A stretch of 64,000 nt of DNA from a virus. Below are positions 8,167 through 64,000 of this stretch, piece after piece. Position numbers and translations under genes: made by a program. A model generated the notes under the pieces. It saw only the letters and a list, made by a program, of their open reading frames with translations, had not been told where the DNA came from and searched no databases. Each line of letters opens with the position of its first letter. Within the stretch, counting starts at the first letter, position 1. The stretch spans positions 6,831 to 70,830 of the IMG/VR virus record IMGVR_UViG_3300042402_004628; one strand, written 5' to 3'.

Positions 8167-8197
8167 AAATCCTGTCATTTGACAGGATTTTTTTTTG
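8167..8197 (+). terminator. intrinsic terminator
   Basis: AATCCTGTCATTTGACAGGATT + T9. Confidence 0.65.
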
Positions 8198-9040
8198 CGC
8201 CAAAAATTAAACAAAAAAAAACAAATGAAAAACACAGAAACTTACAATGAACTCGTGCAGAAGATGCGCAAATTCTTTCTTGAAAGAGGATTCAAGGAAG
8301 TGCCAACACAATCAAGATTATCAATTCTCGCGGCTTGTGAGAACCCACACTCGGTTAAAACGTTCGAGTATGGTGGTTTGATCTGGCCGTTGCCACAGAC
8401 TGGACAGATGTGGCTTGAGTATGAGTTGTTAAAGAATCCAGAATGGAATGGCGTATTTTGCGTATCAACATCGTACAGAGAAGAAAAGAACCCAATCCCA
8501 GGAAGGCATGAGCTTATCTTCCCAATGTTTGAGTTTGAGTCAAAGGGAACCATGGAGGATTTAATCAAAATGGAAGGCGACCTTTTGGCTTATCTTGGAT
8601 TTGGTGATGAGATGGTTCAAGTTAAATACGATGATGTGTGTGAGGAATACGGTGGGGTACCAATTCTTGAGGATGAGCATGAATCCAGAATGTGGAATGA
8701 AAAGGGTAATGTTGTTTCATTACAACACTTCCCAATCAGAACAAATCCATTCTGGAACATGAAACACAATAACGATGGGATTTTCAACAAGGTTGATGTG
8801 ATTCTTTACGGACAGGAAACAATTGGATCCGCCGAGAGAAGCTGCGATGTTGAGAAGATGAGAGAAATGTTTTATGCTATTGAGAACGGTGCGTATTGCG
8901 CCAAGTTGTTCGAGTTATTCGGAAAAGAAAGGGTTGAGGCTGAGCTTGAGGAATTCTTGAAGCACAATTTCTTCCCAAGATATGGTGGTGGAATCGGGAT
9001 GACCAGAATGGCCAGAGCGTATGAGTTATTAAAGAAATAA
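8195..9040 (+). CDS. class II aminoacyl-tRNA synthetase catalytic-core-like / asparagine synthetase A (AsnA)-like protein
   Basis: motif-2-like 'STSYREEKNPIPGRHELIFPMFEFES' and motif-3-like 'GGGIGMTRMARAYELL' (compare AsnA 'GGGIGQSRL'); 281 aa with no anticodon-binding domain. Confidence 0.55.
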   Translation: MRQKLNKKKQMKNTETYNELVQKMRKFFLERGFKEVPTQSRLSILAACENPHSVKTFEYGGLIWPLPQTGQMWLEYELLKNPEWNGVFCVSTSYREEKNPIPGRHELIFPMFEFESKGTMEDLIKMEGDLLAYLGFGDEMVQVKYDDVCEEYGGVPILEDEHESRMWNEKGNVVSLQHFPIRTNPFWNMKHNNDGIFNKVDVILYGQETIGSAERSCDVEKMREMFYAIENGAYCAKLFELFGKERVEAELEEFLKHNFFPRYGGGIGMTRMARAYELLKK

Positions 9041-9741: not shown

Positions 9742-10056
9742 ATGAACATGGTAAAACTTTTTGAGAGAATACATATCCCATTGTGGATCGCAAAGGATAT
9801 GTTCTGGATGTTGGGTCAGGGCGAACTCTCATTGGCTTTCGCGATACCAACCATAATATTATCAACAATACTCATAACAGTAAAACAGGGGTCGGAAAGG
9901 TGGCTCGAGATGATGATGGCCTTTTGGTTATCAGCCAATACCTTATGGATGTCCCACGAGCTTTTTCATACGGACACAAAAGAAATTGCATTAACCTGTT
10001 TTTTATTTGGCATTTTAACAATTCCAATCTATTTATTAAAGATAAAAGAAGAATAA
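9742..10056 (+). CDS. small multi-pass membrane protein
   Basis: In-frame ATG at 9742 inside track ORF 9589-10056; three hydrophobic segments. Confidence 0.45.
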   Translation: MNMVKLFERIHIPLWIAKDMFWMLGQGELSLAFAIPTIILSTILITVKQGSERWLEMMMAFWLSANTLWMSHELFHTDTKEIALTCFLFGILTIPIYLLKIKEE

Positions 10057-10064
10057 AACTAGTT

Positions 10065-11639
10065 ATGAAACTAACTGAGGAAATAAAGAAAATGCAATCC
10101 ATGATGGGCATTATGTCCGAGGATGTGAAAATATACGCAAACGGTGTTGGATCTGAGGTGTTTAATGATAACGAACATTACGGAAAGGTTGATGATATTA
10201 ATTTAAATGACACCATAGCAAATGAACCGTTTAAGGATATGGAATACATGGATAAAAGTTCCAATGTCGATGATATGGTTCAAGCCTTGAAATCTGGTGA
10301 AGAGCTGCCACCAATACTTGTTATTCAACACCCCTTCGACCAATCAAAATATTTGGTTGTCGATGGAAACCATAGAAGATACGCATATGACCGCGCAGGT
10401 GCTGATAAGATTCCAGCCGTTGTGATTAAACCAGAGGATGTTTTGTTAATGCAATCCGATTGGGGTGATCCAGAGGAAAAGGCGATCAGATTATCTGATG
10501 TTATATCCGATCCAGAGTTGTTTGCTCGAGAAAACACAAGAATGTTAATTGACAAGTATTTTGTTAAACCAGACGGATCACATGAGTTCGAATTGAATGA
10601 AAATTTATATGAGGAAAAGAAAAAAGCCGATCGTTGTTTAAGAATAGCGAGAAGAAAATACAGCAAACCATCAGCATATAGATCTGGTGCAATCGTTCAA
10701 TGCAGAAGAGGAAAGATATGGAGAGGTTTGAAGGAAGAGGAGATCCAAATGATTGACAACGCACCAGAGGAAATGCAAGGTTTGATCGCCAAGGCTCACG
10801 ATGCTTTGACGTGGAAGAGGGGTCGAAAAGAATATGCTCCAGATTTTAATGAACTTCAAACATGGGTGGATGCTTATTTGGAGACTGACGGTGGAATGCA
10901 TGAAGCGAAGAAAACCGATTTCTCAAAGGAGAAAAAGAGCGGACTTCACGGATGGTTTTCAAGAAGAGGTGGTGGCGGAAGCAAAGGATGGGTTGATTGC
11001 AACACATGCAGAAAAGTTGACGGAAAGAAAAAATGCAAGGCTTGTGGAAGACAAAAGGGTGAGGTGAGAGCCAAGTACCCATCATGCAGACCAACACCAG
11101 CATCATGCGGAACACCAGGAAAGGGAAAATCTTGGGGCAAGACAAAGGAAGAGGGTTACAGCTTGAATGAAGCCAAGGAGATGAAGAGAGTTGCTTTGCT
11201 TTTCATTGTGATTGACAACGAAGCGTTGTTGTTCAAGAGAAGCGAAGACGAAACAACAAATCCAGGAAAATACGGAATGCTTGGTGGTGGAATTGAAAAG
11301 AATGAAACGCCAGAGGAAGCAATCGTGAGAGAGATCAGAGAAGAAGCTGGTGTTGAGTTGAAATCATTCAAACCACTGAAGAAATATATTTACAACAACG
11401 AGTGTGAATTAAACGTATTCTACACAAACGAATTTCCAATTGATGATGTTGTGCTTGACAAGAACGAACACACATCGTACAAATATTTCACGATGGAACA
11501 ATTGATAGATATGGATCCAAAGGATATGATTGGTTCCAACAAAGAAATCGCGAAGGATTACAACGAGATCGCAAACAAGAAAAAGAAATTGGAAGAAGAG
11601 ATAGAGAGAATAAAAGCTACGATGAAGATTCTTATTTAA
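10065..11639 (+). CDS. ParB/Srx-like nuclease domain + Cys-rich linker + Nudix hydrolase fusion; shared N-terminal leader family
   Basis: 'LVVDGNHRRYA' ParB-type motif; Nudix box 'GGGIEKNETPEEAIVREIREEAGV'; Cys cluster CNTC..CKAC..C..C; N-terminus 'MKLTEEIKKMQSMMGIMSE'; the track ORF start 9783 overlaps the membrane gene. Confidence 0.7.
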   Translation: MKLTEEIKKMQSMMGIMSEDVKIYANGVGSEVFNDNEHYGKVDDINLNDTIANEPFKDMEYMDKSSNVDDMVQALKSGEELPPILVIQHPFDQSKYLVVDGNHRRYAYDRAGADKIPAVVIKPEDVLLMQSDWGDPEEKAIRLSDVISDPELFARENTRMLIDKYFVKPDGSHEFELNENLYEEKKKADRCLRIARRKYSKPSAYRSGAIVQCRRGKIWRGLKEEEIQMIDNAPEEMQGLIAKAHDALTWKRGRKEYAPDFNELQTWVDAYLETDGGMHEAKKTDFSKEKKSGLHGWFSRRGGGGSKGWVDCNTCRKVDGKKKCKACGRQKGEVRAKYPSCRPTPASCGTPGKGKSWGKTKEEGYSLNEAKEMKRVALLFIVIDNEALLFKRSEDETTNPGKYGMLGGGIEKNETPEEAIVREIREEAGVELKSFKPLKKYIYNNECELNVFYTNEFPIDDVVLDKNEHTSYKYFTMEQLIDMDPKDMIGSNKEIAKDYNEIANKKKKLEEEIERIKATMKILI

Positions 11640-50406: not shown

Positions 50407-50438
50407 CAAATATATAACAGGAATTTTTAATACGCAAA
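50407..50438 (-). promoter_or_regulatory. cassette-type promoter heading the 46.9-50.4 kb part of module D
   Basis: TTTGCGTATTAAAAATTCCTGTTATATATTTG. Confidence 0.5.
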
Positions 50439-50439
50439 T

Positions 50440-50676
50440 TTATTTCGTTAATTTTATAAAGATTCCAGCTGGCCCATGTGATACATGATAACCACAACAT
50501 CTATTGTCCAAAGTCATACCATACGATTTAAGACGAAATATTATCGCGGACTCAGCCTCACCATAAAAAATAGCGTGAACCGTGCTATCAGCGTAATCAA
50601 TTGAAACGCCAATTATTTTATTTATTGCCCAAGATGGGTTTATGTCCAACTCTTCAACTGGTATGTGTACTAACAT
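50440..50676 (-). CDS. hypothetical small protein
   Basis: ORF track. Confidence 0.4.
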   Translation of the reverse strand: MLVHIPVEELDINPSWAINKIIGVSIDYADSTVHAIFYGEAESAIIFRLKSYGMTLDNRCCGYHVSHGPAGIFIKLTK

Positions 50677-51500
50677 TGTATTCTTTTTAATACGTCTAAT
50701 ATTCTTGAGTATGCTTCAACACCAACTGGTATCGACATTAATGAGACCAAAAAGTTACTGATGTATGAGTACATTGCGATGATATCCCCTTGAGATAACT
50801 TGTCAGATGTCTTGATGAAGACAATCAAAGCTGTCACAAGAAATGTATATTTAACCGCATTCACCCAGAACCAATTCTTTCCTTGTAATGTTGAACCGTA
50901 TATCCATAACTTTCTTCTTCTGTTAAAGAAACTTGTTATCTCATCCTTATTGGAACGATTGATAACATCAACTTTTTTCTCATATTGATTGTTCCCAACA
51001 ACAGTTGCTTGTTTTATCTTCTTGTAAAACTTAAACACAATAAACATAATTGGGAACACACAACCCAACACAATGAAACCTGTTATCAAACTTCCCCTCA
51101 TCACAAAAACCAAACTACCCAGAACCGTGACAATAACGGAAATGTAATAATGAACGTAACTCTCGAGAACATCCACAATCTGGTGAGCCATATCTGTCCT
51201 GGCTACCTTAGATGAGTTATCAACATCGGTCTTATGTATAAACTCCATCACGATGTTGTTATATATCTTTGTGTATACCTTTGTGTCATAAACCATTCTC
51301 TTGTATATGAACATGGTTGATCCAGCGTAAACCAGAACCAAACCAATCAACCAATTCCAGTTACCAACCAACAAACCATCAATCGTCTTTCCAAGAAAAT
51401 AGGGTTGCAATAAAAGCAAACCCTCGGCAATTAACATGTAAGTGTATATTAATAATAACTCATACTTATATTGCTTAAATATATTAATCAGATGTTTCAT
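50670..51500 (-). CDS. ABC-exporter-type transmembrane domain protein with no ATPase domain
   Basis: Six-helix layout with 'LLLLQPYFLGKTIDGLL' resembling the ABC_membrane N-terminal helix; no Walker motifs. Confidence 0.45.
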   Translation of the reverse strand: MKHLINIFKQYKYELLLIYTYMLIAEGLLLLQPYFLGKTIDGLLVGNWNWLIGLVLVYAGSTMFIYKRMVYDTKVYTKIYNNIVMEFIHKTDVDNSSKVARTDMAHQIVDVLESYVHYYISVIVTVLGSLVFVMRGSLITGFIVLGCVFPIMFIVFKFYKKIKQATVVGNNQYEKKVDVINRSNKDEITSFFNRRRKLWIYGSTLQGKNWFWVNAVKYTFLVTALIVFIKTSDKLSQGDIIAMYSYISNFLVSLMSIPVGVEAYSRILDVLKRIQC

Positions 51501-52050
51501 CGTTTTCAGTTTCCCCTTTCAGTTTTTCATAATAATCTTTTAGTTCACATAAGCTATACCAGTCCTTATCGAATGTCGGTTCCATTTCCTTTATGTTCTC
51601 AACCAGCTCGGCTTTGTAGCCTCTGTGATATACATAATGTTCTATCGCATCAGCCAAATCCTGAAGATGCTTCGGTGCCCCTATGCTTATTCTCAAATCG
51701 TAATCAGACCATTTAGTTTTATAATCCCACATTCGAATCCCCTTGGTTATTTTTCTCTCAATATTATGTAAGAACCTGTTCCTTACTCTAACGATTGAGT
51801 TATCCGATCCAAATAAATGCAAGAACCTTAGGAACCACCTTGGGCACCACCAGGGTTTGGCTTCAGCATCCATTGCCATTACCAATGCGTGAATCATTCC
51901 ACGCTTCTCGTAAGCATCCTCGAAAGGAACATAGCCTAGGTAGCCATACTTTTCATGGAAATTCTTTGGAAAGAAAACCGCTCGCAGGTCATCCAACCTT
52001 ATATCCATTGTGTGGATCATCCCTTTATTTTTACCCTTGAATATTTTCAT
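51484..52050 (-). CDS. hypothetical protein
   Basis: ORF track 188 aa. Confidence 0.5.
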   Translation of the reverse strand: MKIFKGKNKGMIHTMDIRLDDLRAVFFPKNFHEKYGYLGYVPFEDAYEKRGMIHALVMAMDAEAKPWWCPRWFLRFLHLFGSDNSIVRVRNRFLHNIERKITKGIRMWDYKTKWSDYDLRISIGAPKHLQDLADAIEHYVYHRGYKAELVENIKEMEPTFDKDWYSLCELKDYYEKLKGETENDETSD

Positions 52051-52387
52051 TTCGAATGTTGTTAAATTCTTCTCTTATTCTTCTGATTATTTCAGCATCG
52101 ATATTTCTCATTAGTTCTTCTGTCAATGCTCTGGTCAATTCTTTCTCAACATCTTCATCACATCTAACACGAGTTATTAATTTATCTTTCTCATAAAACC
52201 AAATAACCTTGAATCTTTCATATGAAAAGTTCGATTTGATTTTTGGATATCTAAACTCTTCGGTTTTGGGAAATGGTTCTTCAAGTTCATTGTTGAATAA
52301 AATAACATAATGGTCACCAACATCAATGATATCATCACACAATAGGTAGGTTCCATACTCATCATTTAATAACCATTCTTTAGACAT
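52031..52387 (-). CDS. hypothetical protein
   Basis: ORF track. Confidence 0.45.
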   Translation of the reverse strand: MSKEWLLNDEYGTYLLCDDIIDVGDHYVILFNNELEEPFPKTEEFRYPKIKSNFSYERFKVIWFYEKDKLITRVRCDEDVEKELTRALTEELMRNIDAEIIRRIREEFNNIRNENIQG

Positions 52388-52390
52388 AAA

Positions 52391-52756
52391 TTACTTCTTA
52401 GTGTCATCCTTTATGACAATACTGTAATCCAATTTATTTAGTTCATCAGATAATCTTTTCAAGAAAGTTTCTTCACCATCATCACCAGACAATAACCAAT
52501 CAACACGCTGTGCGTATATCTCAGCAATTCTCAAAATCTTTACAGCATCCCTGAATTTTTTGATGACCTCATCGGGATATTTGTGGTGGGTTCTCTCATC
52601 TGGGTATCTTTCAAAATACTCAACGCCATACCATCTAACCTTTTCTCTGAACTCCTCATCGGTTAAAGGTCTGCCACTTCGTTCTATTTCACTTTCAATG
52701 CTATCAGCAATGTTGCGAATCTTATATTGGTCGTAATCAAATGCTCCTCCACTCAT
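52391..52756 (-). CDS. hypothetical protein
   Basis: ORF track. Confidence 0.45.
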   Translation of the reverse strand: MSGGAFDYDQYKIRNIADSIESEIERSGRPLTDEEFREKVRWYGVEYFERYPDERTHHKYPDEVIKKFRDAVKILRIAEIYAQRVDWLLSGDDGEETFLKRLSDELNKLDYSIVIKDDTKK

Positions 52757-53307
52757 ATTTTATTTGTATAAATTTCTTTTATTGTACCATCTTTATAAAA
52801 AATTCTGCAATCAGGTTTTGTCCACCCATAGAGGTTAGCCATAACTTGCGCATACTGCTCAATGCTATCCAATTTAAGTCTACCAACAACTCTTGTTGAA
52901 CTATATTTATTTTCAACAATTGGTTCAACCAACCAAGTGGCGCCAGGATATTGGCTCTTCAAGTTTTTAATAGCGACATCTTTCTGAATGGTTCCTTTTT
53001 TACCATCGGTCAGCCATTGAGAAACCTCGTAACCATTCCATTTTGTGTTCATCTCCTCGATGTTGGTGGCATAAGATGCTGGGTACCAACGATCGCCACA
53101 GCAAGGGCAATCCATACCCTCATCACAACCATTCCAATAACAACCCAAGTCCTCGGCAATTCTTAGAGCCTCATCCTCCGAAACGGCCTCAATGTACAAT
53201 CTGTGGCATAGTTTATCATCGGTGATGAATGAACCACCACTGTTGTTCTGTGTAATTTCGTAAAATTCGGTTGATTTTGCCTTAATCGCTGATTTTTCGC
53301 TGACCAT
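52753..53307 (-). CDS. hypothetical Cys-cluster protein
   Basis: CYWNGCDEGMDCPCCGD. Confidence 0.45.
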   Translation of the reverse strand: MVSEKSAIKAKSTEFYEITQNNSGGSFITDDKLCHRLYIEAVSEDEALRIAEDLGCYWNGCDEGMDCPCCGDRWYPASYATNIEEMNTKWNGYEVSQWLTDGKKGTIQKDVAIKNLKSQYPGATWLVEPIVENKYSSTRVVGRLKLDSIEQYAQVMANLYGWTKPDCRIFYKDGTIKEIYTNKI

Positions 53308-53372
53308 AATTTTTATTTTAGGTCACAAATATAAAGAAATATTTTTAAATATCCAAATCTTATTGAAACATT

Positions 53373-53633
53373 TTAATCAAAATTATATTTGACTGTAACC
53401 AGATAATTTTTTTTGATATCTTCTGGTATAAAACACCAGACAATATTAATCATCTTGTGGCGCGAAAAAAATGTTGATGGTTTCTCATCTATTTGTTTCA
53501 ACGCATCGGAATTTTCTATAATATGTTTCTCATCGTTTGATATCCAAACGTATTGATCACCGATTCTATTTGGTTTTTTATCATCAACCAAAAGAACCAT
53601 CTTGTCAAGCATTATAAATCTCTCATTCAGCAT
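53373..53633 (-). CDS. hypothetical protein
   Basis: ORF track. Confidence 0.4.
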   Translation of the reverse strand: MLNERFIMLDKMVLLVDDKKPNRIGDQYVWISNDEKHIIENSDALKQIDEKPSTFFSRHKMINIVWCFIPEDIKKNYLVTVKYNFD

Positions 53634-53662
53634 AATCGTATTGAAAATCTAAGTAAAACAAT

Positions 53663-53911
53663 TCACCCCCTTGGGCTGTCCATTGGTTGGACAGCCACTA
53701 AATCTTGTGAAATAAATGTATGCGTAACACCAGTCGCATAAGGCATAAAGATCATGTCATAGTAAACGGAAACGTGTGTACCGAATGTTTCGTAATACCA
53801 AACTACTTTGTGGTTTACACCATCGATTGTGATGTACTCATCACCATCTTTTAATTGATCATCCGTAACAATATAATGATTGCCCTGGTACTTTATGAAC
53901 TCACCAATCAT
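53663..53911 (-). CDS. hypothetical protein
   Basis: ORF track. Confidence 0.4.
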   Translation of the reverse strand: MIGEFIKYQGNHYIVTDDQLKDGDEYITIDGVNHKVVWYYETFGTHVSVYYDMIFMPYATGVTHTFISQDLVAVQPMDSPRG

Positions 53912-54162
53912 ATTGAAATGTCATCATTCTTTGGGGATGCGAAAGTATAATTAGCTGCCATAGCAACTTCAAACTTAGTTAAAAGTTCTTTTATATCAGT
54001 CGCACCCCAACCCGTACCAACCGTTCTGTTTTTTGCGGTGTGTTCGATTGTGTATCGCACAACTCTATCGTGTGTTACACTAACGGACACTCGGAAGTCA
54101 GACCTATCAGTGTATTTCCTTTCAATCTCAGCAACTTTATCCGCTAGTTCAAGTAATGTCAT
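53908..54162 (-). CDS. hypothetical protein
   Basis: ATGA overlap chain. Confidence 0.4.
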   Translation of the reverse strand: MTLLELADKVAEIERKYTDRSDFRVSVSVTHDRVVRYTIEHTAKNRTVGTGWGATDIKELLTKFEVAMAANYTFASPKNDDISI

Positions 54163-54163
54163 A

Positions 54164-54427
54164 TCAGTCCCACTCTGTTATGTCCATATCTCTGTCGTTG
54201 ATCACACAATCTAATGCTCTTTCAATGTCCCAAAAATATGTAACGAAATTACCATCAATCATTGTAATTGTGTTCACACCAAGTGCAGTGTAAAACTTGT
54301 CTGGGTCAATATCGTTATCGACTAACATTGTGACGATCTCATCACTAGTGAAACCGACCTCATATTTTCTTTTGCTATTTTTAATTATTTCTTCTGCCGT
54401 CATATTATTTCTTATTTTTACGAGCAT
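54164..54427 (-). CDS. hypothetical protein
   Basis: ORF track. Confidence 0.4.
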   Translation of the reverse strand: MLVKIRNNMTAEEIIKNSKRKYEVGFTSDEIVTMLVDNDIDPDKFYTALGVNTITMIDGNFVTYFWDIERALDCVINDRDMDITEWD

Positions 54428-54481
54428 TCGGTAGCACCAGGAAAAAATACCATAGTATTACCAGTATCGTTAATGTATGCA

Positions 54482-55087
54482 TTAATTAATTTTTTCTATG
54501 TAACTTAAAACCTCTTCTTTAGTATTAACCCAATCCAATAGTTCGTAGTGTTCGCCTTTGGCGTTTATAAACTCGGCGTTGATTATTTGCAAACTATCTT
54601 CAACATTGTGAATGTTTCCGATGTATCGCTCACGTGCTTCATCGTCATATTCAAAAAGACAACCATCGGAATCTTCCTCAACTCTGATCGTGCTTCCCCA
54701 TTTAACAATGTTCCAGAAAGCGCCACCCTCGGATATTGATGTTGCAAAATCATCCACATCGAATGATTCAGCATCTTCTTTGATTGGCATGTCCCAAGTT
54801 TCTTTCAACATTGGTAGCAACTCGTTCCACCATTTAACATCACCATCAAAATTATCCTCAACGGTAACAACAACCTCGGCAATACCATGCTCTTCTTCAT
54901 CATCCCAGTATAATTCATCACCCTCGGTGGATATCCATTTCTTGGTGAAATCCTCTGAGAATCTGATTGAATCGAGTAGTTCTGTTAAAAATCTAACCCA
55001 CGCTGACTCATCCGATTCTAACTCCTCAAACAAATCGTAATCAGTAATTTTGTAAGTTAATGTGTAGGATACTTTAAACTTTTTCAT
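54482..55087 (-). CDS. acidic hypothetical protein
   Basis: 201 aa, D/E/W-rich. Confidence 0.5.
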   Translation of the reverse strand: MKKFKVSYTLTYKITDYDLFEELESDESAWVRFLTELLDSIRFSEDFTKKWISTEGDELYWDDEEEHGIAEVVVTVEDNFDGDVKWWNELLPMLKETWDMPIKEDAESFDVDDFATSISEGGAFWNIVKWGSTIRVEEDSDGCLFEYDDEARERYIGNIHNVEDSLQIINAEFINAKGEHYELLDWVNTKEEVLSYIEKIN

Positions 55088-55091
55088 TGTA

Positions 55092-56543
55092 TTAAATTTT
55101 AATCTTTATGTTTTCGATAATTAAATCACCAGTGTGAATACCGTTATGTTTATAAATTTCAACATGGTATCTGTTAGATGAGTTGACCTCAAATTCAAAT
55201 TGCATTGTTGGTCTACCGTCAGCGTTGAGTGTTCTACAACAACCCTTTTCACAAGACTCACCAGGCATTTTATGATCGGCTCCGAAGAAAGACATATAAC
55301 CCGCGAAGCTCTCAACCATATTCGGGTGTGCTGTTGTTAATTTATTTCGATTAACGTAAACCTCATAGACACCTTTAGGTATCTTCGTGAATGAAACGGT
55401 TAATACTAATTTAACTCTATTTGGCGCACCTAGCTGGCCACTTGTTGGCGTAACCTGTGTGACAGCATCTGTGATTTGACCATTAATTGGTATGCTGAAA
55501 TTATTGCTATGTAAAACATTGTTGTATGCTCTAGCCATCATCGGTTGATCAGCTTTTTCATATACCTCAACATCATCATAATCATAATCAAGTTTGTATA
55601 TTATCTTTATCACATCTTCCATTGTATAGGTAACTTTCTTACCATTCTCATCGAAGAAAACATAAGACCAGTCAGCTGATTTTAACATCTCCAATGTAAC
55701 TTTCTCCCCATTCGGAGAATTAGTCCATTGCTGCCATAGTCTATCAATGTTTGAGTGATGTGTCCAGAAAACTGGATCAAACCCAGCTGTCGGAACCCAA
55801 CCCATCAACCCTGTCTCACTAATTTTACCAGTGATTGGGTTGTTGAACAACTTACCAGTTTGTACATTACCAGCGCCGATGTAATCGTGCATCGCACCAT
55901 GTGGGGCATTGTTAATCTGCGAGTTAAACATTTCGTATGAGGTGTAACTCATTAATTTATCTGTCTCCAAAGCTCTTTGGATTTCACCTGCAATAGGATA
56001 ACCATAGTTCAAGCTATCAAATCTACAACGTTCATATAGGGATGATTTCGGATCTCTGAATTTTTCTTGTAAAAATTTGTCGTAGTCAAAATTATTTGTG
56101 TAGCCCCAATAAGGTAATGCGAAATCTTTATATCCAGACAATTTTCTAACTATCTTTTCTAAATGGTGAATGTATAATCTATGCCAAACCAAGAAATGAA
56201 TTTTTTCTTTACCACTTGGTGTATGTGTACAATTATCCCAAGCTTCTTTTAAATCGGCTGGGGTCTTATAGCTTGGGCACAGTGGGTTATATAAGATTGT
56301 GTCGGGAACCCAATGAATTGCACCTTGATAATACCAACTCAATGGGTTATCACAAGGCATATTACGCATAATTTTAAAGGCTTTGTCCATGGCTTCAACG
56401 TCCATTTGTGCCTCTGGTGTGTGAATTTCTTTTCGGAGATATCGTTTTCCAACAACATCTCCAACGCTTTCGGTTCTGTCTTTACATGATATTAGCCATA
56501 ATAGGCCAAACATCAAAATGAATAGTATTAATATTTTTTTCAT
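55092..56543 (-). CDS. tyrosinase / polyphenol oxidase (type-3 copper), predicted lipoprotein
   Basis: CuA 'HFLVWHRLYIHHLE', CuB 'HGAMHDYIG...DPVFWTHHSNIDRLWQQW'; N-terminal MKKILILFILMFGLLWLISC lipobox. Confidence 0.8.
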   Translation of the reverse strand: MKKILILFILMFGLLWLISCKDRTESVGDVVGKRYLRKEIHTPEAQMDVEAMDKAFKIMRNMPCDNPLSWYYQGAIHWVPDTILYNPLCPSYKTPADLKEAWDNCTHTPSGKEKIHFLVWHRLYIHHLEKIVRKLSGYKDFALPYWGYTNNFDYDKFLQEKFRDPKSSLYERCRFDSLNYGYPIAGEIQRALETDKLMSYTSYEMFNSQINNAPHGAMHDYIGAGNVQTGKLFNNPITGKISETGLMGWVPTAGFDPVFWTHHSNIDRLWQQWTNSPNGEKVTLEMLKSADWSYVFFDENGKKVTYTMEDVIKIIYKLDYDYDDVEVYEKADQPMMARAYNNVLHSNNFSIPINGQITDAVTQVTPTSGQLGAPNRVKLVLTVSFTKIPKGVYEVYVNRNKLTTAHPNMVESFAGYMSFFGADHKMPGESCEKGCCRTLNADGRPTMQFEFEVNSSNRYHVEIYKHNGIHTGDLIIENIKIKI

Positions 56544-56553
56544 AATTTTTAAT

Positions 56554-56754
56554 TTATTTTACAACATTAAGTAAAAAAAGTGTGATGTAAACCATAGATA
56601 CAACTGTCATAAATTTAATTGTCATGGCGATGATGGGTTTAGTACCGTTAACTTTAGCAACAAGCATGAAGGATCCTGTTGCATAGAACCAAATGATGGT
56701 TATGATCTTAGCAATGTCTAATATGTTCATAGTTTTAATTTTTAAATAAATCAC
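56554..56754 (-). CDS. small two-TM membrane protein
   Basis: ORF track 66 aa, hydrophobic. Confidence 0.4.
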   Translation of the reverse strand: MIYLKIKTMNILDIAKIITIIWFYATGSFMLVAKVNGTKPIIAMTIKFMTVVSMVYITLFLLNVVK

Positions 56755-57298
56755 TCAGGTATTGAAACATTTCAAAGTAAGGTTCGGTGGCATACCAAGT
56801 AAACCCCAACTTAGTCATGAATTCCTCATTTTCTTTTTTATACATCTCAAACATACGACTACCAGTCATCTTAGAGTATTGTACATTAGCGATACGATCA
56901 CATAATTTAACAAATACAGCGCCTTTGGTATTACGAATACCCTCATAGTATTTGTCATTGGCACGTTCCTTACGGTTCTTACCCTTTTCATTGGTTACAG
57001 CATAAATAATCTCAGCCGCTTCCTGACCCAAAATATCTTTAACATCGTTATATGACACACGACAATCTTCGATCAAATCGTGGCCCCAACAAGCAAGCAT
57101 ACATGCGTGTTTAGTCGAAACCTGTGTGGTTGGATTAACAACCACATCACCAGTAAAGTATTCTTTATCGTCTAAAAGATGGTTGTACTTCTCACCGACA
57201 TGGGCCACCATTCTCAAGTGGAACTCATACGGTAAGTATGTGTCGTACATGTGGTTTGTTTCATTGTGCTTCTCAATGCACCATTTTTTCTTATCCAT
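56735..57298 (-). CDS. HD-domain hydrolase, RelA/SpoT-type small alarmone hydrolase (SAH/Mesh1)-like
   Basis: 'AHVGEKYNH ... WGHDLIEDC' (H..H..HD-x-x-ED signature); ~187 aa; own promoter 57316-57347. Confidence 0.6.
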   Translation of the reverse strand: MDKKKWCIEKHNETNHMYDTYLPYEFHLRMVAHVGEKYNHLLDDKEYFTGDVVVNPTTQVSTKHACMLACWGHDLIEDCRVSYNDVKDILGQEAAEIIYAVTNEKGKNRKERANDKYYEGIRNTKGAVFVKLCDRIANVQYSKMTGSRMFEMYKKENEEFMTKLGFTWYATEPYFEMFQYLSDLFKN

Positions 57299-57315
57299 AA
57301 TTTCTCTTGTTGTTA

Positions 57316-57347
57316 CAAAGGTAAGAAAGAAAAATTTAATAACCAAA
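57316..57347 (-). promoter_or_regulatory. cassette-type promoter for the SAH-like gene
   Basis: TTTGGTTATTAAATTTTTCTTTCTTACCTTTG. Confidence 0.5.
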
Positions 57348-57397
57348 AAAAGGGGATAATTATTTCTAATTACCCCCCAGCACTTGACATGGCATGC

Positions 57398-57754
57398 TTA
57401 AGATTTTTTGTAATAGATCGTATCAGGTAAAGACCCAAACACGAACTTGGTTACGTCACATAACCACATTTTAATATCAAATGGTATACCCATGTAAGAC
57501 TCAACCTTATATGTGGCACCAGAACCATTCCCCTCATCATACAACCAACCATCCGAAATTTTTTTGAGCTCCTCAGCACCCTCAAATGGTTTATCGGACA
57601 ATGCTATCCAAATATACCACTCACCTTCACATAGCAAATCAAGCCAGGTGTCAGCACCAAGAACCATTTGTAGATCGGCTTTAGATCCTTCCCATTCTGG
57701 AAGATCAACAAACCAACCATTAAATTCTTTATCAAATCTTAATCTTTGTTTCAT
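57398..57754 (-). CDS. hypothetical protein
   Basis: ORF track. Confidence 0.45.
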   Translation of the reverse strand: MKQRLRFDKEFNGWFVDLPEWEGSKADLQMVLGADTWLDLLCEGEWYIWIALSDKPFEGAEELKKISDGWLYDEGNGSGATYKVESYMGIPFDIKMWLCDVTKFVFGSLPDTIYYKKS

Positions 57755-58137
57755 AAACTACATTTAAACATATAGTTAAATATCTCACAATTTGAATTTA
57801 GTTTAGATAAATCTGGAAAGGTCACATCACCTATATAGTTATTATCTATATGTGATATGTGTAACTCGGTGAACATGTGTGCATATTTTTCATATGTTTT
57901 TTTGCCACCAATGCACCAATCAATAACTTCGATATCTGGATTCCAAAGTCCCCTGGTATCGATTACAACTTCACGACCCTTCAATGGTGGTAACTCTAGT
58001 GATGTGTTGTAGCCAACGAGTAATCTACCACCCATGGTTTTTTCTTTGAAATGTTTGAAATCTTCGGAACTACGCCATAGCATTTTATTACCGATTCCTA
58101 TGAACCCGAGATTATTTACAGCAATTATAGCTTTCAT
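57751..58137 (-). CDS. folA: dihydrofolate reductase
   Basis: 'IIAVNNLGFIGIGNKMLW...DFKHFKEKTMGGRLLVGYNTSLELPPLKGREVVI...IGGKKTYE' matches the DHFR fold motifs. Confidence 0.8.
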   Translation of the reverse strand: MKAIIAVNNLGFIGIGNKMLWRSSEDFKHFKEKTMGGRLLVGYNTSLELPPLKGREVVIDTRGLWNPDIEVIDWCIGGKKTYEKYAHMFTELHISHIDNNYIGDVTFPDLSKLNSNCEIFNYMFKCSL

Positions 58138-58448
58138 TTTGATAATAAATCAATTAGTATGTAAGACAATTTATAACCAGCGAATGCACCTAAAGCTGAT
58201 GGTATTGGAAACACAATTAACTTACCAAGTGATGTAACATACTTCGGTCGGTTAACAATTCTACCCATATAAAAGTAGTAGGTTATATAACCAAGAAGAA
58301 CCGCTAGATCTGTTTTGGTTGCGATAAACACAACCAACATAGCACCGATAAAACCAAACGTAAAATTGTCTCTGGACTCGGTAAAAACCTCACCAGGAGT
58401 TGCATCTTTATATTCTTTAACTATTTGTTTTATCGTTGTCTTGCCCAT
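58134..58448 (-). CDS. membrane protein
   Basis: Three hydrophobic segments. Confidence 0.45.
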   Translation of the reverse strand: MGKTTIKQIVKEYKDATPGEVFTESRDNFTFGFIGAMLVVFIATKTDLAVLLGYITYYFYMGRIVNRPKYVTSLGKLIVFPIPSALGAFAGYKLSYILIDLLSK

Positions 58449-58704
58449 TTTGTTTTATTTTCTCAAGATATTCAATCATAGTTTCGGCGTCTTTTGGGTT
58501 AATGATTATTTCATCAAATGCGCCGTAATTTGACTGTCTACCGAATATATAATCAATAGCATATAAAATCCTATCACGCAATGATTTACGTTTCAAGTGT
58601 GGCTCGATGTATAGCGTATTATCTTCATCATCATACCAAATGGCAAATTGATGTTCGAGCGATTCACATTCACACACCAAGATTTCTCTATTAATCTTTT
58701 CCAT
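58417..58704 (-). CDS. hypothetical protein
   Basis: ORF track. Confidence 0.4.
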   Translation of the reverse strand: MEKINREILVCECESLEHQFAIWYDDEDNTLYIEPHLKRKSLRDRILYAIDYIFGRQSNYGAFDEIIINPKDAETMIEYLEKIKQNGQDNDKTNS

Positions 58705-58921
58705 CTTCTTTTTTAATATCCTCTCGAGTTAATTCTTTTTCAGCTTGGTGCATGAAGATAATCTCTTTTGTTTGTTCATCAACTGTGCAAGCGGCAATTG
58801 GTTTATCAACTCGGTAATGATATTCTTCTCCTAGCATACCAACTTCTCCGTTGACAACTTCAAAGGCATCAAACTCCTCTGGTAGGGTGTTGAGCCACGT
58901 TTTTAATTCTCCTAAATTCAT
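58691..58921 (-). CDS. hypothetical protein
   Basis: ORF track. Confidence 0.4.
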   Translation of the reverse strand: MNLGELKTWLNTLPEEFDAFEVVNGEVGMLGEEYHYRVDKPIAACTVDEQTKEIIFMHQAEKELTREDIKKEDGKD

Positions 58922-59943
58922 ATATCGTAAGGTGTTGTACTGAATGTTATCTTCTCGATACTCAAACAGTTTGTGTTTATTATTTTTTCGATAAACATAA
59001 TAAAATCAGAAACAATATCAAATGATTTTATTTGTTTGTTCAGGTATAGGTTGTAAACCCCAATTTCTTGAAGAACATCTGATTTATTGATTATTAAATC
59101 AGTCACACCGTTGATGTTAATTGCTTTGATCATATCGTCCAAGTCCAACCAATCAACTTGCCTCGGTCTACCAGTTGTTGCACCAAACTCATTACCAACT
59201 TCTCTTATCTTCACAAACAATGGGTCTGCACCTTCAAAGTTTTTGGCACCAACATATGTGCGATAAGCTTTTGCAACGCCGTACACTCTGTCAATTTTTT
59301 GTGCTGGTATTCCATTAAGGATGGCCCCACCAATTGTGCAATGTGATGATGTAACATATGGGTAATCACCCCAATCAATATCCAACTCAAAACCCTGAGC
59401 CCCTTCGCAAAGTATACTACAACCGTCTTGCCCATTAAATAATCCGTATGTATCAACAACCATGTCGGCTAACATAGGAACATCAACAGCTCTAAGACCT
59501 TTTCGATAATACTTATCTCGGTAAGCTGGGCCATTCCCAGTTTTAGTCGTACCGATTTTACTATCCAAACTATCTTCGTGTAGATGTTGCTCGGTGATGA
59601 TGTGAACACGTTTATCAATCAATAAGTTCTCACGAACTTTAAATCCAGCTAATTCGAGTTCATCAATTTCTTGAATAAGTTTGTCTGGGTTGACCACACA
59701 ACCAAGTCCAATAATTGATTTGATTCCATACAATACACCAACTGGTATGAAATGTGTTACATATTTTTCACCATTGTGATATATCGTGTGACCAGCATTA
59801 CCACCACCATTGTAGCGCATAACATAATCATACTCATCTGGCTTCTTAGCCAGAGCGTGGGCAACCTTGCCCTTTCCAGTGTCACCCGCTTGCAGGTCAA
59901 CAATTACATCAGCTTTGCGTATCATAGTGCGTGGTTTTCCCAA
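58918..59943 (-). CDS. purA: adenylosuccinate synthetase (short form)
   Basis: 'GDTGKGK', 'RYNGGGNAGHT', 'GTTKTGNGPAYRDK', 'EGAQGFELDIDWGDYPYVTSS', 'GNEFGATTGRPRQVDWLD' align to PurA motifs; the real start may be the internal MIRKADV. Confidence 0.85.
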   Translation of the reverse strand: MGKPRTMIRKADVIVDLQAGDTGKGKVAHALAKKPDEYDYVMRYNGGGNAGHTIYHNGEKYVTHFIPVGVLYGIKSIIGLGCVVNPDKLIQEIDELELAGFKVRENLLIDKRVHIITEQHLHEDSLDSKIGTTKTGNGPAYRDKYYRKGLRAVDVPMLADMVVDTYGLFNGQDGCSILCEGAQGFELDIDWGDYPYVTSSHCTIGGAILNGIPAQKIDRVYGVAKAYRTYVGAKNFEGADPLFVKIREVGNEFGATTGRPRQVDWLDLDDMIKAININGVTDLIINKSDVLQEIGVYNLYLNKQIKSFDIVSDFIMFIEKIINTNCLSIEKITFSTTPYDI

Positions 59944-60380
59944 TAACCGTTAGGGTAATCAATATTAACATAAAGCATATAAGTTGTGTAACCTTTGCGC
60001 TCATCTTTTTTATAGTGATTCCAGGTAGCATCTTCATCCATAAATGGTCGCAAACCAATAGCTTTGAATTTCTCAACAAACCACTTACAAAGTTCATGGT
60101 GAATGACCATATCTTTTGTCTCGAGTTCAAAACGAACACAAACCCATGGTGTTGTCATATAACCATCGGATCCCCCACCATAACTCAAAAGTTCTGGATA
60201 TAAAACGATACCGATTTTTGGTTTCCATTCGTCATTTTTAGAGTCTGGGTTAATCAAAAAAGGTGTTTTAACTTCCAAGTAATGTTCATCAACCTGTTTA
60301 AAATTTGGGTCGTGTAATTGTAATCGATCAATAATTTGGTCGATTTCTTTGTCGATTTGTTCTCTTATATTTACTAACAT
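59922..60380 (-). CDS. hypothetical protein
   Basis: Start placed at MLVNIREQ, after the flotillin-gene terminator hairpin. Confidence 0.4.
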   Translation of the reverse strand: MLVNIREQIDKEIDQIIDRLQLHDPNFKQVDEHYLEVKTPFLINPDSKNDEWKPKIGIVLYPELLSYGGGSDGYMTTPWVCVRFELETKDMVIHHELCKWFVEKFKAIGLRPFMDEDATWNHYKKDERKGYTTYMLYVNIDYPNGYWENHAL

Positions 60381-60432
60381 AATTTTATTTAAAATAGGAT
60401 TGGGTTGTTTCCAACCCAATCCATTGTTTTAA

Positions 60433-62295
60433 TTATTTTACCTCGGTTACAGTACCCTGTTCAGATTCTTTTTTCTCTTGGATTTGCTTTAACAATTCCA
60501 TTCCAAGTAAGCCATTGATTGGGCTACTATCACCACTACCTGTGATAAGAATCTCAGGGATGATTTTGATACCATTTGTACCAATCATTTCGGTAACTTT
60601 AAGTTTACCAAAGTTTTCAACACCCATAGCTTTAACTTGCTTTTCGTAAGCCTCAGCAGTTGATTTACCAATCGCGGAAATCTTAGATGCTTCAGCATCA
60701 CCAGTCAATTTAATCTGCGTAGCATCAGCTTCAGCGTTCAATTTCTTAGCTTCAGCTTGAGCGGCAGCTTTTAATTTCAAGGCTTGTGCTTCACCCTCAG
60801 ATTTCTTAACAGCGGCCTCAGCTTCACGTTGAGAAATCTCAACCGATTGTTGTGCTGACACCATTTGTCCTTGCATATCGGCAAGTGCTTTAGCCGATTC
60901 AAGCGTCTTACGTTTATCTTGAGCTTTGCGTTGAGTGTCAAATGTTACCTCTTCTTCTTGTGCAATCTTACGGTCAGTAAGAGTTTTCATCAGAGAGTCT
61001 GGTGGTGTGATGTCACCAATAAGCGTATCAACCGCATGCACGTTGTATTCTTCAAGAACCGTGCTGATCTTATCTTTAGCAGCATTCTGTCTTTGTTGAC
61101 GAGTTGATAAGAACGCAATCACATCAGAATCTTGTGCCGAGTTACGGAAATAGTTACCGATGGTTGGTTCAAGAACTTGTGACACAAGGTTCTGCATTGA
61201 GCCGAAACGAGCAATTACTTTAGGCGCTTCGGTTGATGGGATGTGGATAATCTGTGAAACATCCAAATTGAATGGGAAACCGTCTTGTGAACGTACTGTG
61301 ATGGTACTCAAGTTCTTATCAAGATTGTGTGATTCATTACGAGCATTTGCCCAGTTAAGAACCAAGTTTGTTGTTGGTACTATCTCAATCTTCTGTGTAT
61401 AAGGATTGATTGCGTATTTACCTGGATCCAATGGGGTTGCCCACACACCTTTCTGACCTTTTTTAACGATGTTACCGTGTTTAAAATCACTTCCAGTGGT
61501 GTCTTCACCATCTTCACCAACATAAGAGATAACAACACCAACATGACCGATAGGAATGGATGTCATTTCTTTCTTCTCAACTTCGATTGCCCATGGGTTC
61601 AATGAATAAGAACCAGCTTGAATAACTTGGATTTGTAAACCCCTTTGTCCACCATTAGCCAAAAACTTATCAAAGTCTTGGAAATTATTGTGACCGCTAA
61701 CCACAGAACCAGCGATTGAACCAATCTCAAGTGGTGTACCATCAAGTGCTGTAACAACGCCAACCATACCATCTTCAATGTATGTGATGTCAGCGAGGAA
61801 TATCTCGAATAAATGGGTATTAACACGATACACACCGTTGTTTAAATAACCAACTTGTTTACCACGTTGTCCACCTGTTGATAAAAACGCTCTAGCATCT
61901 TGGTAATCATCACAATCAACGTGTCGAGCCAAGATAGCACCCTTTGGTAACTGTGCGCCATCTTTAGCTGATAACAAGCCGATCTTACCTTTAGGTATTG
62001 TTGTTAAAGGGGCTTGTTCGATTTCGAATTGCCATATCCAGTAAGCCCAATATAAACCTGGGGCTAATGTGTCGGCCTGAAAGCCTGGTTCATTGTTTAA
62101 GGCGATAATCTTACCATCGGGTAATTGTTTATTGGGGCCAAAAAGTACAAATTTTTTGGTCACCAAACCAATTTTGTCTTCAGGTATGATAACCATACCA
62201 AAGAACACTCGTAGTACGAACTTGTAGAATACTACCATGAGGATCGGGATTAAAACCCATGCGTAACCCAATACGCTAGTTAATTGTTCTGTCAT
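60433..62295 (-). CDS. flotillin-like SPFH/band-7 protein (YqiK-type) with EA-rich C-terminal coiled coil
   Basis: N-terminal TM, SPFH-like core, 'AEAAVKKSEGEAQALKLKAAAQAEAKKLNAEADA' flotillin-type repeats. Confidence 0.7.
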   Translation of the reverse strand: MTEQLTSVLGYAWVLIPILMVVFYKFVLRVFFGMVIIPEDKIGLVTKKFVLFGPNKQLPDGKIIALNNEPGFQADTLAPGLYWAYWIWQFEIEQAPLTTIPKGKIGLLSAKDGAQLPKGAILARHVDCDDYQDARAFLSTGGQRGKQVGYLNNGVYRVNTHLFEIFLADITYIEDGMVGVVTALDGTPLEIGSIAGSVVSGHNNFQDFDKFLANGGQRGLQIQVIQAGSYSLNPWAIEVEKKEMTSIPIGHVGVVISYVGEDGEDTTGSDFKHGNIVKKGQKGVWATPLDPGKYAINPYTQKIEIVPTTNLVLNWANARNESHNLDKNLSTITVRSQDGFPFNLDVSQIIHIPSTEAPKVIARFGSMQNLVSQVLEPTIGNYFRNSAQDSDVIAFLSTRQQRQNAAKDKISTVLEEYNVHAVDTLIGDITPPDSLMKTLTDRKIAQEEEVTFDTQRKAQDKRKTLESAKALADMQGQMVSAQQSVEISQREAEAAVKKSEGEAQALKLKAAAQAEAKKLNAEADATQIKLTGDAEASKISAIGKSTAEAYEKQVKAMGVENFGKLKVTEMIGTNGIKIIPEILITGSGDSSPINGLLGMELLKQIQEKKESEQGTVTEVK

Positions 62296-62364
62296 TTTTT
62301 TATTTTTTTAAATGTTGTACAAAGGTAAGTTAAAATTTTTAAATCACCAAATTTTTTTATAAAA

Positions 62365-62619
62365 TTATTTAATGGTTTTGTTGAGTGAATCAATCATATG
62401 CATCGCATCATTCCAAGTAACTTCTTTTGAAAGCTGGATTGTGTAATCAGCGGCATTTTCAACATTTACGTTGATGGCTGGTACTCCGTGTGAGTACCTA
62501 CCATCAAGTTCGTATGCTACAACTTTTTTTGGTGATAGAATAAAATAAATCCCAACCGATAGGACTGATGCTACAACTAGCATCAAAAAGTATAACCAAG
62601 ATTTTTCCATTGTGCTCAT
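62365..62619 (-). CDS. small single-TM protein (possible NfeD/YqiJ-like flotillin partner)
   Basis: N-terminal TM; immediately upstream of the flotillin gene. Confidence 0.4.
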   Translation of the reverse strand: MSTMEKSWLYFLMLVVASVLSVGIYFILSPKKVVAYELDGRYSHGVPAINVNVENAADYTIQLSKEVTWNDAMHMIDSLNKTIK

Positions 62620-62620
62620 C

Positions 62621-64000
62621 TTATAATTTATTTAAACGTTCACGAATTTCAGTTAATGTTGTTTGGTTGTGGAACTTACCATCTTCATAAATGGTTTGTA
62701 AGATTCCAGTTCCCTCTTGCTCCCAAGTACATTGAGTTAATACCTCATGGTCTTCAGTTACACAGATCAAACCTTTCAAAGATTTCTTGGTACCATCATC
62801 AGTTACTGGATCTTTGTAGATGTTGTAACCAACCTTTCCTTTTGGAATTAAAGCACTTCCCAAAAGTCCATCGGCTGAAGGTATAGTATCAAACTCCTCA
62901 ACTTCAAACCAAGCACCTTTGGCTGCGAAACCTAAAGTGTCACGGGTATTCATTTGGTAAGTAAATGAACCAACACCCAATACAATGTTTGTTGCCGCAA
63001 ATCCTTTTGCTTCCAATCTCTTGTAGATTTCAATTTGACGGTCTAATGTGATTGAATCTCCGTAGATTGCTCCGATGTGTGGGTCAAGAACCTTGTAACC
63101 TTGTTCATTGATTGTTCCACCAAAGATGTCCCAAAGTAATTCTATTACCCCGACTTCAGCAGGTGTTTTATACTCACCAGGCGCATCGGATAATTGTTCT
63201 TCTCTACCACAAATAATATCAACTGGATCACCAGAGTCAGGACGAATTACTAACTTACCGTCACGAGCCATGATAGCTTCTTTGTTTGCTGGTAAGTATT
63301 CAGTAATCAACTTCCACAAATCAAATGTGTCAGATACAATTGATAGGATTCCATTCGGAAAATCTACCAACCAATCGGCAATCATTTGTTGTTCACCAAC
63401 AGTAAAGATTTTTGTTGTTGATACAGAGTGTTCAGATGCGTTAACCGAGTTAATGCACACTTCGTCTTTTGGTTCATTATAGAAATAACGAGCCCCTGGA
63501 ATACAGATGATTGTATCTGAACCACGGAACGATGTTGCATGTCCCATTCCACTAGTCAACATATCCCATGGTGATAAACCACGTGCTGAAAAGTCATGAC
63601 ACATAAAAGGAATTAACCAAGCTGTTGATGGGTCGGTTTTCATAACCCACTCAACAACATTACGTTTGTATTGCAATGCTATTGTTGCTGATGTGGATGG
63701 TTTCCAAGCCAACGAACTGATAATTGTTTCCAAATACAATGTCAACCACGCAAACCCATCGACAGTATTGATGAAAGTCATGTGTGGAACATTTGGGTTT
63801 GTTTCAATACCTTCAGGTAGTGCTTTAACACGAATAGGTAAGTAACCTAATCTGTGTAGTGCAACGAAGTGTGATGCATCGTAATCCATTCCAAGATACA
63901 ATGACATATCTTTTCCAAAGTTAACCGCAACTTCCTCGGGTAAACTGAAAAAGTTCTCTTGAAATTCATCATGTAACCATTTAACAACCAATTGTTGTCC
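62621..64000 (-). CDS. nadV: nicotinamide phosphoribosyltransferase (NAMPT/NadV), 5' end beyond the window
   Basis: 'IRPDSGDPVD', 'GSDTI', C-terminal 'IYKDPVTDDGTKKSLKGLICV' match NAMPT; the frame stays open to position 64000 (the track start 63991 is a TTG artefact). Confidence 0.8.
   Translation of the reverse strand, partial: GQQLVVKWLHDEFQENFFSLPEEVAVNFGKDMSLYLGMDYDASHFVALHRLGYLPIRVKALPEGIETNPNVPHMTFINTVDGFAWLTLYLETIISSLAWKPSTSATIALQYKRNVVEWVMKTDPSTAWLIPFMCHDFSARGLSPWDMLTSGMGHATSFRGSDTIICIPGARYFYNEPKDEVCINSVNASEHSVSTTKIFTVGEQQMIADWLVDFPNGILSIVSDTFDLWKLITEYLPANKEAIMARDGKLVIRPDSGDPVDIICGREEQLSDAPGEYKTPAEVGVIELLWDIFGGTINEQGYKVLDPHIGAIYGDSITLDRQIEIYKRLEAKGFAATNIVLGVGSFTYQMNTRDTLGFAAKGAWFEVEEFDTIPSADGLLGSALIPKGKVGYNIYKDPVTDDGTKKSLKGLICVTEDHEVLTQCTWEQEGTGILQTIYEDGKFHNQTTLTEIRERLNKL

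Follow-up and report, generated by a model that had tools for sequence, protein, structure and literature searches.

The stretch of viral DNA analysed here (the window) comprises 64,000 nucleotides, positions 6,831 to 70,830 of the IMG/VR record IMGVR_UViG_3300042402_004628. A gene of the SPFH family has been identified at positions 60433..62295 of the window (minus strand, as are all features below unless stated otherwise), preceded by the genes of a small membrane protein and of nicotinamide phosphoribosyltransferase (NAMPT). Its product of 620 amino acids (aa) is composed, in sequential order, of a transmembrane anchor, three beta-repeats, the SPFH domain, a long helix and a C-terminal tail. 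SPFH proteins are universal membrane organisers, the cage architecture of which was solved only recently. The gene described here is probably a host-derived auxiliary gene of the phage, and its product would form a membrane-anchored SPFH cage with vault-like repeats.

An earlier reading of the DNA, made from the sequence only, had described an N-terminal transmembrane segment, an SPFH core and a tail rich in glutamate and alanine (EA-rich), and all three elements have been recovered. A single hydrophobic segment is located at the N-terminus (aa ~8-31; 62203..62274), with a maximum hydropathy of 2.27 in a 19-residue window, and the AlphaFold2 (AF2) model places a helix at aa 2-31. The Pfam family Band_7 (PF01145) matches aa 246-456 (60928..61560) with E=1.1e-26 and 94.3 bits, against a cutoff of 23.6. 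The long EA-rich helix (aa 433-557; 60625..60999) is supported by the model, by its composition and by a family-profile match to flotillin-2; it is modelled as one helix of about 125 residues (AF2/DSSP), and alanine, glutamate, lysine and glutamine make up 52-60% of aa 451-550. The predicted structure shows the alpha/beta fold of an SPFH domain with a long helix after it, and this helix is equivalent to the coiled-coil or cap helix of the SPFH cages. Because K25 and R29 come after the hydrophobic core, the positive-inside rule points to an N-out/C-in orientation, in which the bulk of the protein would be cytoplasmic.

The Band_7 match begins only at residue 246. The region of 210 residues between the anchor and the SPFH core, which the sequence-only reading had missed, is formed by three tandem units covering aa 35-246; (i) r1 (aa 35-98; 62002..62193), a short beta unit without a helix insert, detected by HHalign; (ii) r2 (aa 99-172; 61780..62001), a unit of 73-74 aa with the motif (F/Y)QDxxxFLxxGGQxGxQ, scoring 89.9 bits with the hidden Markov model (HMM) of the repeat; (iii) r3 (aa 173-246; 61558..61779), detected by BLASTP and HHalign against r2. 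The identity between r2 and r3 is 34% (E=6e-13 in BLASTP), and HHalign pairs them with a probability of 99.8% (E=3e-30), whereas the values for r1 are 97.3% against r2, 98.4% against r3 and 96.3% against the start of the SPFH domain. With family alignments the probabilities range from 97.3 to 99.8% among the three units and from 96.3 to 98.0% between each unit and the SPFH start (aa 247-320), while the negative control, the repeats against the SPFH core, gave at most 0.4%. The repeat HMM also matches aa 246-309, inside the SPFH domain. By the HHalign probabilities the protein therefore contains four copies of one beta-rich unit. The fourth copy, which occupies the first ~60 residues of the Band_7 match, is the integral beginning of the SPFH domain, and r1-r3 are duplications of it. 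According to the structural model, r1-r3 are predicted to fold like the repeats found in major vault protein (MVP), and the predicted tandem repeats are placed N-terminal to the shoulder domain, as in MVP.

The same construction is found in a large family. A full search of 1.84 billion cluster representatives returned 2770 matches, some of them 900-1800 aa long and matched in as many as 9 separate stretches. Each protein has 1-13 units of the motif (F/Y)Q(D/N)xxxF...GxxGxQ, with a period of 73 aa; the window protein contains 2 such units and r1. A genome scan with a degenerate DNA pattern for NFQDxxxFxxxGGxxGxQ, in which one genome per prokaryotic species was taken, gave at least 120 loci, and 119 of the 120 listed encode an open reading frame (ORF) with repeats and an SPFH domain. 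The listed loci belong to Bacteroidota, Cyanobacteria, Acidobacteriota, Chloroflexota, Planctomycetota and Verrucomicrobiota, to some Firmicutes and Actinobacteria, and to the archaeon Methanomassiliicoccus. One long construction is that of NET58509.1 (P0121) from the cyanobacterium Symploca sp. SIO2E6, in which 1802 aa hold 13 units, then the SPFH domain, the coil and, at the C-terminus, a vWA domain. In cyanobacterial relatives with lengths of 1300-1800 aa (P0121, P0122, P0124; L088, L114), the SPFH domain is preceded by 8-13 copies of the 73-aa unit, and P0122, like P0121, has a vWA-like domain C-terminal to the coil. If stacking follows that of MVP, these relatives with 8-13 repeats would be very tall membrane-anchored cages.

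The closest cellular relatives are chromosomal Bacteroidota proteins of 630-660 aa labelled ‘YqiK/COG2268-like’, encoded for example by Flavobacterium reichenbachii, F. anhuiense, F. denitrificans, Fluviicola chungangensis and metagenome-assembled genomes (MAGs) of Chitinophagaceae. They are collinear with the phage protein over the full length, are 60-64% identical to it and share its order of elements, namely transmembrane anchor, r1, two 73-aa repeats, SPFH domain, long helix and tail. They differ in being cellular and apparently monocistronic, with upstream gaps of 100-380 bp and without a shared upstream partner. No experimental characterisation of these Bacteroidota homologues was found. 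Neighbour joining places the phage clade as sister to the Bacteroidota clade. The phage clade includes LR756502.1, a 642-kb uncultured phage that is the closest phage in GenBank and encodes an SPFH protein 64% identical over 96% of the length. The gene is shared with Bacteroidota, and its acquisition by the phage from a host is the most likely course. A host-derived auxiliary gene is indicated by the 60-64% identity to Bacteroidota proteins, the sister position of the clades, the viral contigs of 299-373 kb encoding the capsid protein Gp23, and the 55 copies of a promoter motif in the window; the last two are described below.

The sequence-only reading had also taken the gene to be carried by a phage, and this is well founded. 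An identical 620-aa protein is encoded on 17 contigs, one of them of 298.7 kb, with the same gene order. Thirty related loci from IMG/VR, whose contigs reach 373 kb, encode SPFH proteins that are 71-86% identical in 29 cases and 61% in one, and contigs of these loci encode a T4-type Gp23. The genes downstream of the SPFH gene vary among the related phages; upstream, NAMPT is usually kept. A nucleotide search of the region against GenBank phages gave no match, and when 24 kb of the window were compared with phages, the sole match was to 340 bp of NAMPT in the Tenacibaculum phages PTm1 and PTm5.

The gene is flanked by expression signals of its own. A promoter-like site, TTTG-N20-TACCTTTG (62320..62351), is located in the 69-bp spacer between the small upstream ORF and the SPFH gene. 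Just past the SPFH stop codon, a terminator-like hairpin (60397..60422) has an 11-bp stem with 6 G-C pairs, followed by the T-run TATTTTAAAT. The pattern TTTG-N18-21-TAnnTTTG, which we take to be the Bacteroidota sigma-A promoter consensus (-33 TTTG, -7 TAnnTTTG), occurs 55 times in the window, compared to 3.1 copies expected and a maximum of 8 in 100 shuffled sequences. About 45 of the 55 copies are near-identical 32-mers, TTTGCA(A/C)(G/A)TTAAATTTATTnCAnTTATCTTTG, each placed ahead of a small ORF; they extend over 14672-46354 in two divergent blocks, on the minus strand to ~32.8 kb and on the plus strand from ~32.8 kb. Scattered copies are present at 1715-1762 and 50407-62351. The 32-mer blocks look like a regulon of early promoters of the Bacteroidota type, served by the host sigma-A, and the motif set as a whole is a strong clue to the host. 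A Bacteroidota host is also suggested by the NAMPT gene, since it has 75% DNA identity to that of Tenacibaculum phage PTm1, and the host of this jumbo phage is probably a member of that phylum. With its own host-type promoter and terminator, the SPFH gene is therefore probably read by the host RNA polymerase as an independent unit, perhaps early in infection.

The neighbours named in the sequence-only reading, NAMPT, PurA and DHFR, are all present. The NAMPT gene (62621..63991) is cut by the end of the window and encodes 509 aa in the full contig; its product matches NAPRTase (E=2e-29) and phrog_448 (E=6e-141). Among the 27 informative IMG/VR loci, i.e. those with a visible region upstream of the SPFH gene, NAMPT is located at most 3 kb upstream in 17 and abuts the SPFH gene directly in 10. 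It is the most conserved neighbour of the SPFH gene, and this linkage is kept more strongly than that with the small upstream gene. Two divergent types of NAMPT exist in related viral loci (L134-L161 and L001-L010), with E about 1e-145 and about 1e-245, respectively, to the NAMPT of the window. The slot between NAMPT and the SPFH gene is either empty or holds a transmembrane protein of 84-87 aa or an unrelated lipoprotein-like protein of 81-88 aa (lipobox LASC/LRSC).

Downstream of the SPFH gene, Pfam identifies a PurA-like protein of 341 aa (Adenylsucc_synt; 58918..59943) and DHFR_1 (57751..58137). The PurA-like protein stays under the NCBIfam cutoffs both for PurA (273 against 402 bits) and for PurZ (123 against 300), and its top listed tblastn matches are unannotated huge-phage records (43% identity) and an adenylosuccinate synthetase of the bacterial type. 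Directly behind the SPFH gene lies an ORF of 165 aa (59922-60419) with a TTG start at 60419, the product of which is unmatched in Pfam, PHROGs, NCBIfam and PADLOC. As the TTG is situated inside the hairpin at 60397-60422 and the protein has 152 aa in one related contig, the true start probably lies further downstream. Further from the SPFH gene, the window encodes a tyrosinase/polyphenol-oxidase-like protein of 483 aa (55092-56543; Tyrosinase E=1.5e-26, PPO1_DWL), an unusual auxiliary gene for a phage that keeps the same position in related contigs. On the plus strand, there are a 281-aa catalytic core resembling class II aminoacyl-tRNA synthetases (8195-9040; tRNA-synt_2 E=6e-14), which has no anticodon-binding part, and a 618-aa protein (9783-11639) in which domain matches reveal a fusion of ParB_N-like and NUDIX parts. 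ARAGORN found no tRNA genes in the 64-kb window.

In the reading that we favour, the phage gene is a host-derived copy, and many molecules of its product would pack laterally on the host inner membrane to form a ring or cage. By analogy with known cages, the long helices would make up the roof, and the wall would be raised above that of ordinary SPFH cages by the three stacked repeats, by an estimated 7-8 nm on the basis of vault dimensions. Such a cage, probably produced from a transcript of its own, may fence off or stabilise a patch of the inner membrane, or membrane proteases and transporters, during the long infection by a jumbo phage. The most economical reading is that the auxiliary copy supplements the host's own SPFH protein; a role as an assembly platform may be considered as well. 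A simple prediction is that the height of a cage should scale with the number of its repeats, and the finding bears on the current debate over a prokaryotic origin of vaults (PMC12962969, PMC13607799).

Several points weigh against this reading. The cage is drawn by analogy and from models of the monomer, the AF2 confidence is low at aa 500-620, the very part that would close the cage, and the orientation in the membrane stands on the positive-inside rule. The neighbour-joining tree, being of unrooted quality, is compatible with transfer in either direction, from host to phage or from phage to host. The repeat region belongs to no Pfam family, Vault and MVP_shoulder are unmatched even at E<=10, and a PDB search with the repeat profile retrieves no MVP sequence. 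The resemblance to MVP, at 13-15% identity, is therefore structural and architectural and not a matter of family membership. No phage SPFH protein with a demonstrated function was found in the literature, and the role in infection proposed here is a guess.

A bolder version of the cage reading, which we consider possible but rather doubtful, regards the whole family as membrane-anchored ‘half-vaults’. The height of the cages would be set by 1 to 13 or more MVP-like domains that arose by tandem duplication of the N-terminal beta-subdomain of SPFH, the family would be a living intermediate in the origin of the vault repeat, and the phage would use its cage as a sheltered inner-membrane compartment enclosing, for example, a protease, a transporter or an assembly site.

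Counter-defence or superinfection exclusion is an unlikely explanation. Here, the cage would not maintain the membrane but sequester or block effectors in it (host proteases, receptors or the pores of abortive infection, for instance) or block the DNA-entry machinery of rival phages. The enclosure of membrane proteins by SPFH cages is known (PMC13100048), the host-type promoter is consistent with early expression, and the SPFH gene is at least 71% identical in 29 of the 30 related loci (61% in the other), while its flanking genes are variable. However, neither a PADLOC match nor homology to known anti-defence proteins was found, and in cells the homologues occur across many phyla as ordinary chromosomal genes, which argues for an activity of the housekeeping type.

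According to the sequence-only reading, the locus would encode a canonical flotillin of the YqiK/FloT type together with an NfeD/YqiJ-like partner immediately upstream, a two-gene membrane-microdomain module. This is very unlikely. Bacterial flotillins occur in an operon with an NfeD2-type partner, YqiJ or YuaF (PMC2636767), and the E. coli yqiJ-yqiK operon was used as the positive control. The N-terminal anchor, the SPFH domain and the EA-rich coiled-coil tail are indeed all present in the phage protein, and JGI labels relatives ‘YqiK’, a label at the COG level. Of the two profiles that had been proposed as a check, Band_7 is found as described above, whereas the Flot domain (PF15975) gives E=3.2 and 8.3 bits, below its cutoff of 27, compared to E=6.4e-41 in the control YqiK, which also matches Band_7. 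The best BLASTP segment between the phage protein and YqiK (E=0.006) covers only the low-complexity EA-rich coil, the repeat HMM has no match in YqiK, and no NCBIfam model matches the SPFH protein. Searched with phmmer against the PDB, the single sequence gave only matches at noise level; the matches came from the family profile, which scores prohibitin-2 at 5e-8, QmcA at 2.5e-6 and flotillin-2 at 6e-4. The weak flotillin-2 match is restricted to the helix and tail (profile positions 447-596 on flotillin-2 residues 214-399). The failure of Flot, the confinement of the BLASTP segment to the coil and the better scores of prohibitin-2 and QmcA mean that the name ‘flotillin-like’ is fair for the tail only.

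The partner proposed in the sequence-only reading does exist as a small membrane protein directly upstream, in the place that yqiJ occupies in E. coli. It is an ORF of 84 aa (62365..62619), which begins 1 nt past the NAMPT stop codon, and 69 bp lie between its end and the SPFH start. Its product has one N-terminal transmembrane segment, with a maximum hydropathy of 2.43, and only 54 residues after it. Since homologues form 13 clusters with 59-99% identity, the ORF is a real gene; it evolves fast, and in one phage its identity is 50%, as against 84% for the SPFH protein. For the 84-aa protein there is no match in Pfam (even at E<=1), PHROG, NCBIfam or PADLOC, and thus none to NfeD, YqiJ_N or YqiJ_OB, whereas the control YqiJ is recognised by YqiJ_N (1e-15) and YqiJ_OB (2e-14); BLASTP of the 84-aa protein against YqiJ gives E=14. 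The promoter-like site separates the two genes. The neighbourhood is variable: a homologue of the 84-aa protein precedes the SPFH gene in 5 of the 27 informative IMG/VR loci and is absent or replaced in the other 22, where NAMPT abuts directly (10 loci), a lipoprotein-like ORF takes the slot (2 loci, plus L010) or other genes are found. It is absent in LR756502.1 and from all 68 upstream ORFs recovered beside cellular SPFH homologues. By these comparisons the 84-aa protein is no partner of the NfeD/YqiJ kind; it is a small membrane protein that is variable and unrelated. The module is thus largely refuted by the Flot, YqiJ and neighbourhood tests, and the sequence-only reading is partly supported: the gene encodes an SPFH/Band 7 membrane protein of a phage, but one that is neither a classical flotillin nor partnered by NfeD.

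A conserved upstream partner was sought among the cellular homologues as well, and none was found across the family. In a branch with four repeats (L087, L096, L125, L111), of which L087 and L096 are Acidobacteriota MAGs, the gene of a conserved protein of ~185-250 aa lies upstream of the SPFH gene at a distance of 28-75 bp. This protein begins with a single transmembrane helix, and its C-terminal domain, which is helical, ends in ...SGAGFxxKxxxxxxRRELT; it belongs to no Pfam family and is unrelated both to NfeD and to the 84-aa protein of the phage. At one Flavobacterium locus, a TPM-domain protein is encoded 254 bp from the SPFH gene.

A true vault-like closed particle, in which two half-cages joined by their N-terminal repeats would give a container free in the cytoplasm that might, for example, hold phage components, is highly improbable. 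The repeats, the SPFH ‘shoulder’ and the long helix do follow one another in the order of MVP, and prokaryotic MVP-like proteins have been reported from Asgard archaea (PMC12962969), as a pan-archaeal combination of MVP repeat and SPFH (PMC13607799) and, as MVP homologues, from a few bacteria (bioRxiv 10.1101/872010). However, MVP is soluble and its half-shells pair through their N-termini, and it is exactly at this dimerisation site that the phage protein has a hydrophobic transmembrane helix; moreover, it has 3 repeats against 9 in MVP, and the Vault and MVP_shoulder profiles do not match it.

That the gene is no phage gene at all but a piece of bacterial DNA put into a viral contig by faulty assembly or binning, as its 60-64% identity to chromosomal Bacteroidota genes might suggest, is effectively refuted, because the synteny recurs in independent assemblies (the 17 contigs with the identical protein and the same neighbours, one of 298.7 kb, and the 30 related loci on contigs of up to 373 kb encoding Gp23), while the window is packed with small ORFs behind the ~45 near-identical promoters and identity to any cellular gene does not exceed about 64-67%.

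SPFH genes carried by viruses are common, and public databases already list relatives of the window protein under the names ‘Band 7 domain containing protein [uncultured Caudovirales phage]’ or ‘YqiK’. The SPFH ORFs of T4-like phages were noted already in 2006 (PMC1524935). In BFVD, the model is matched at E<=1e-3 by 26 representatives, which come from phages and giant viruses. Other viral carriers of SPFH proteins are the T4-like phages 44RR, Aeh1 and RB43, Rhizobium phage Pasto, Vibrio phage pVa5 and Streptomyces phage StarPlatinum, and, among giant viruses, Harvfovirus, Pandoravirus and Tupanvirus. Most of these other proteins cannot hold a repeat region, as they have only 260-430 aa. The combination of transmembrane segment, repeat(s) and SPFH domain is shared by LR756502.1 and by two cultured Vibrio phages of the Ackermannviridae, Kuja (Kuja_1010, ‘putative membrane protein’) and 207E48.1 (p0074, ‘SPFH domain / band 7 family protein’). 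The proteins of these two Vibrio phages are ~23% identical to that of the window and have fewer repeats, r1 and one full repeat. Their flanking genes differ, with nrdA/B in 207E48.1 and an unrelated 117-aa transmembrane protein in Kuja, and NAMPT is absent from the annotated genes in the ~4-kb flanks. Together with culturable Flavobacterium hosts, these two phages carry testable versions of the protein, and an abundant group of jumbo phages, represented in many metagenomes, retains a well-conserved host-type copy with its own promoter.

All SPFH proteins with solved structures make cages, namely HflK/C, QmcA, stomatin, prohibitin, erlin, flotillin and MVP (PMC13100048, PMC12624060). Some of them enclose membrane proteins (PMC13100048 and its references): HflK/C holds FtsH, and stomatin holds an aquaporin and a urea transporter. 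In HflK/C, QmcA-YbbJ, stomatin, prohibitin, erlin and flotillin-1/2, no extra domains are inserted between the anchor and the SPFH domain, in contrast to the phage protein, which lacks the Flot domain and the NfeD partner and is known here from its sequence and from monomer models. The MVP domains have been called unique to the vault in one recent paper (PMC13100048). Three things appear to be undescribed: a widespread transmembrane-anchored SPFH subfamily of bacteria and phages with a variable number of repeats, direct sequence evidence, from profile comparisons, that these repeats copy the N-terminal subdomain of SPFH, and the presence of this repeat-bearing subfamily in jumbo phages. The phage protein is no new kind of system and belongs to a large unnamed bacterial subfamily. 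Compared to MVP, it shows the same order of MVP-like repeats, SPFH ‘shoulder’ and long helix, with low sequence identity and 3 repeats in place of 9, and it carries a transmembrane anchor at the end where the two halves of the vault pair.

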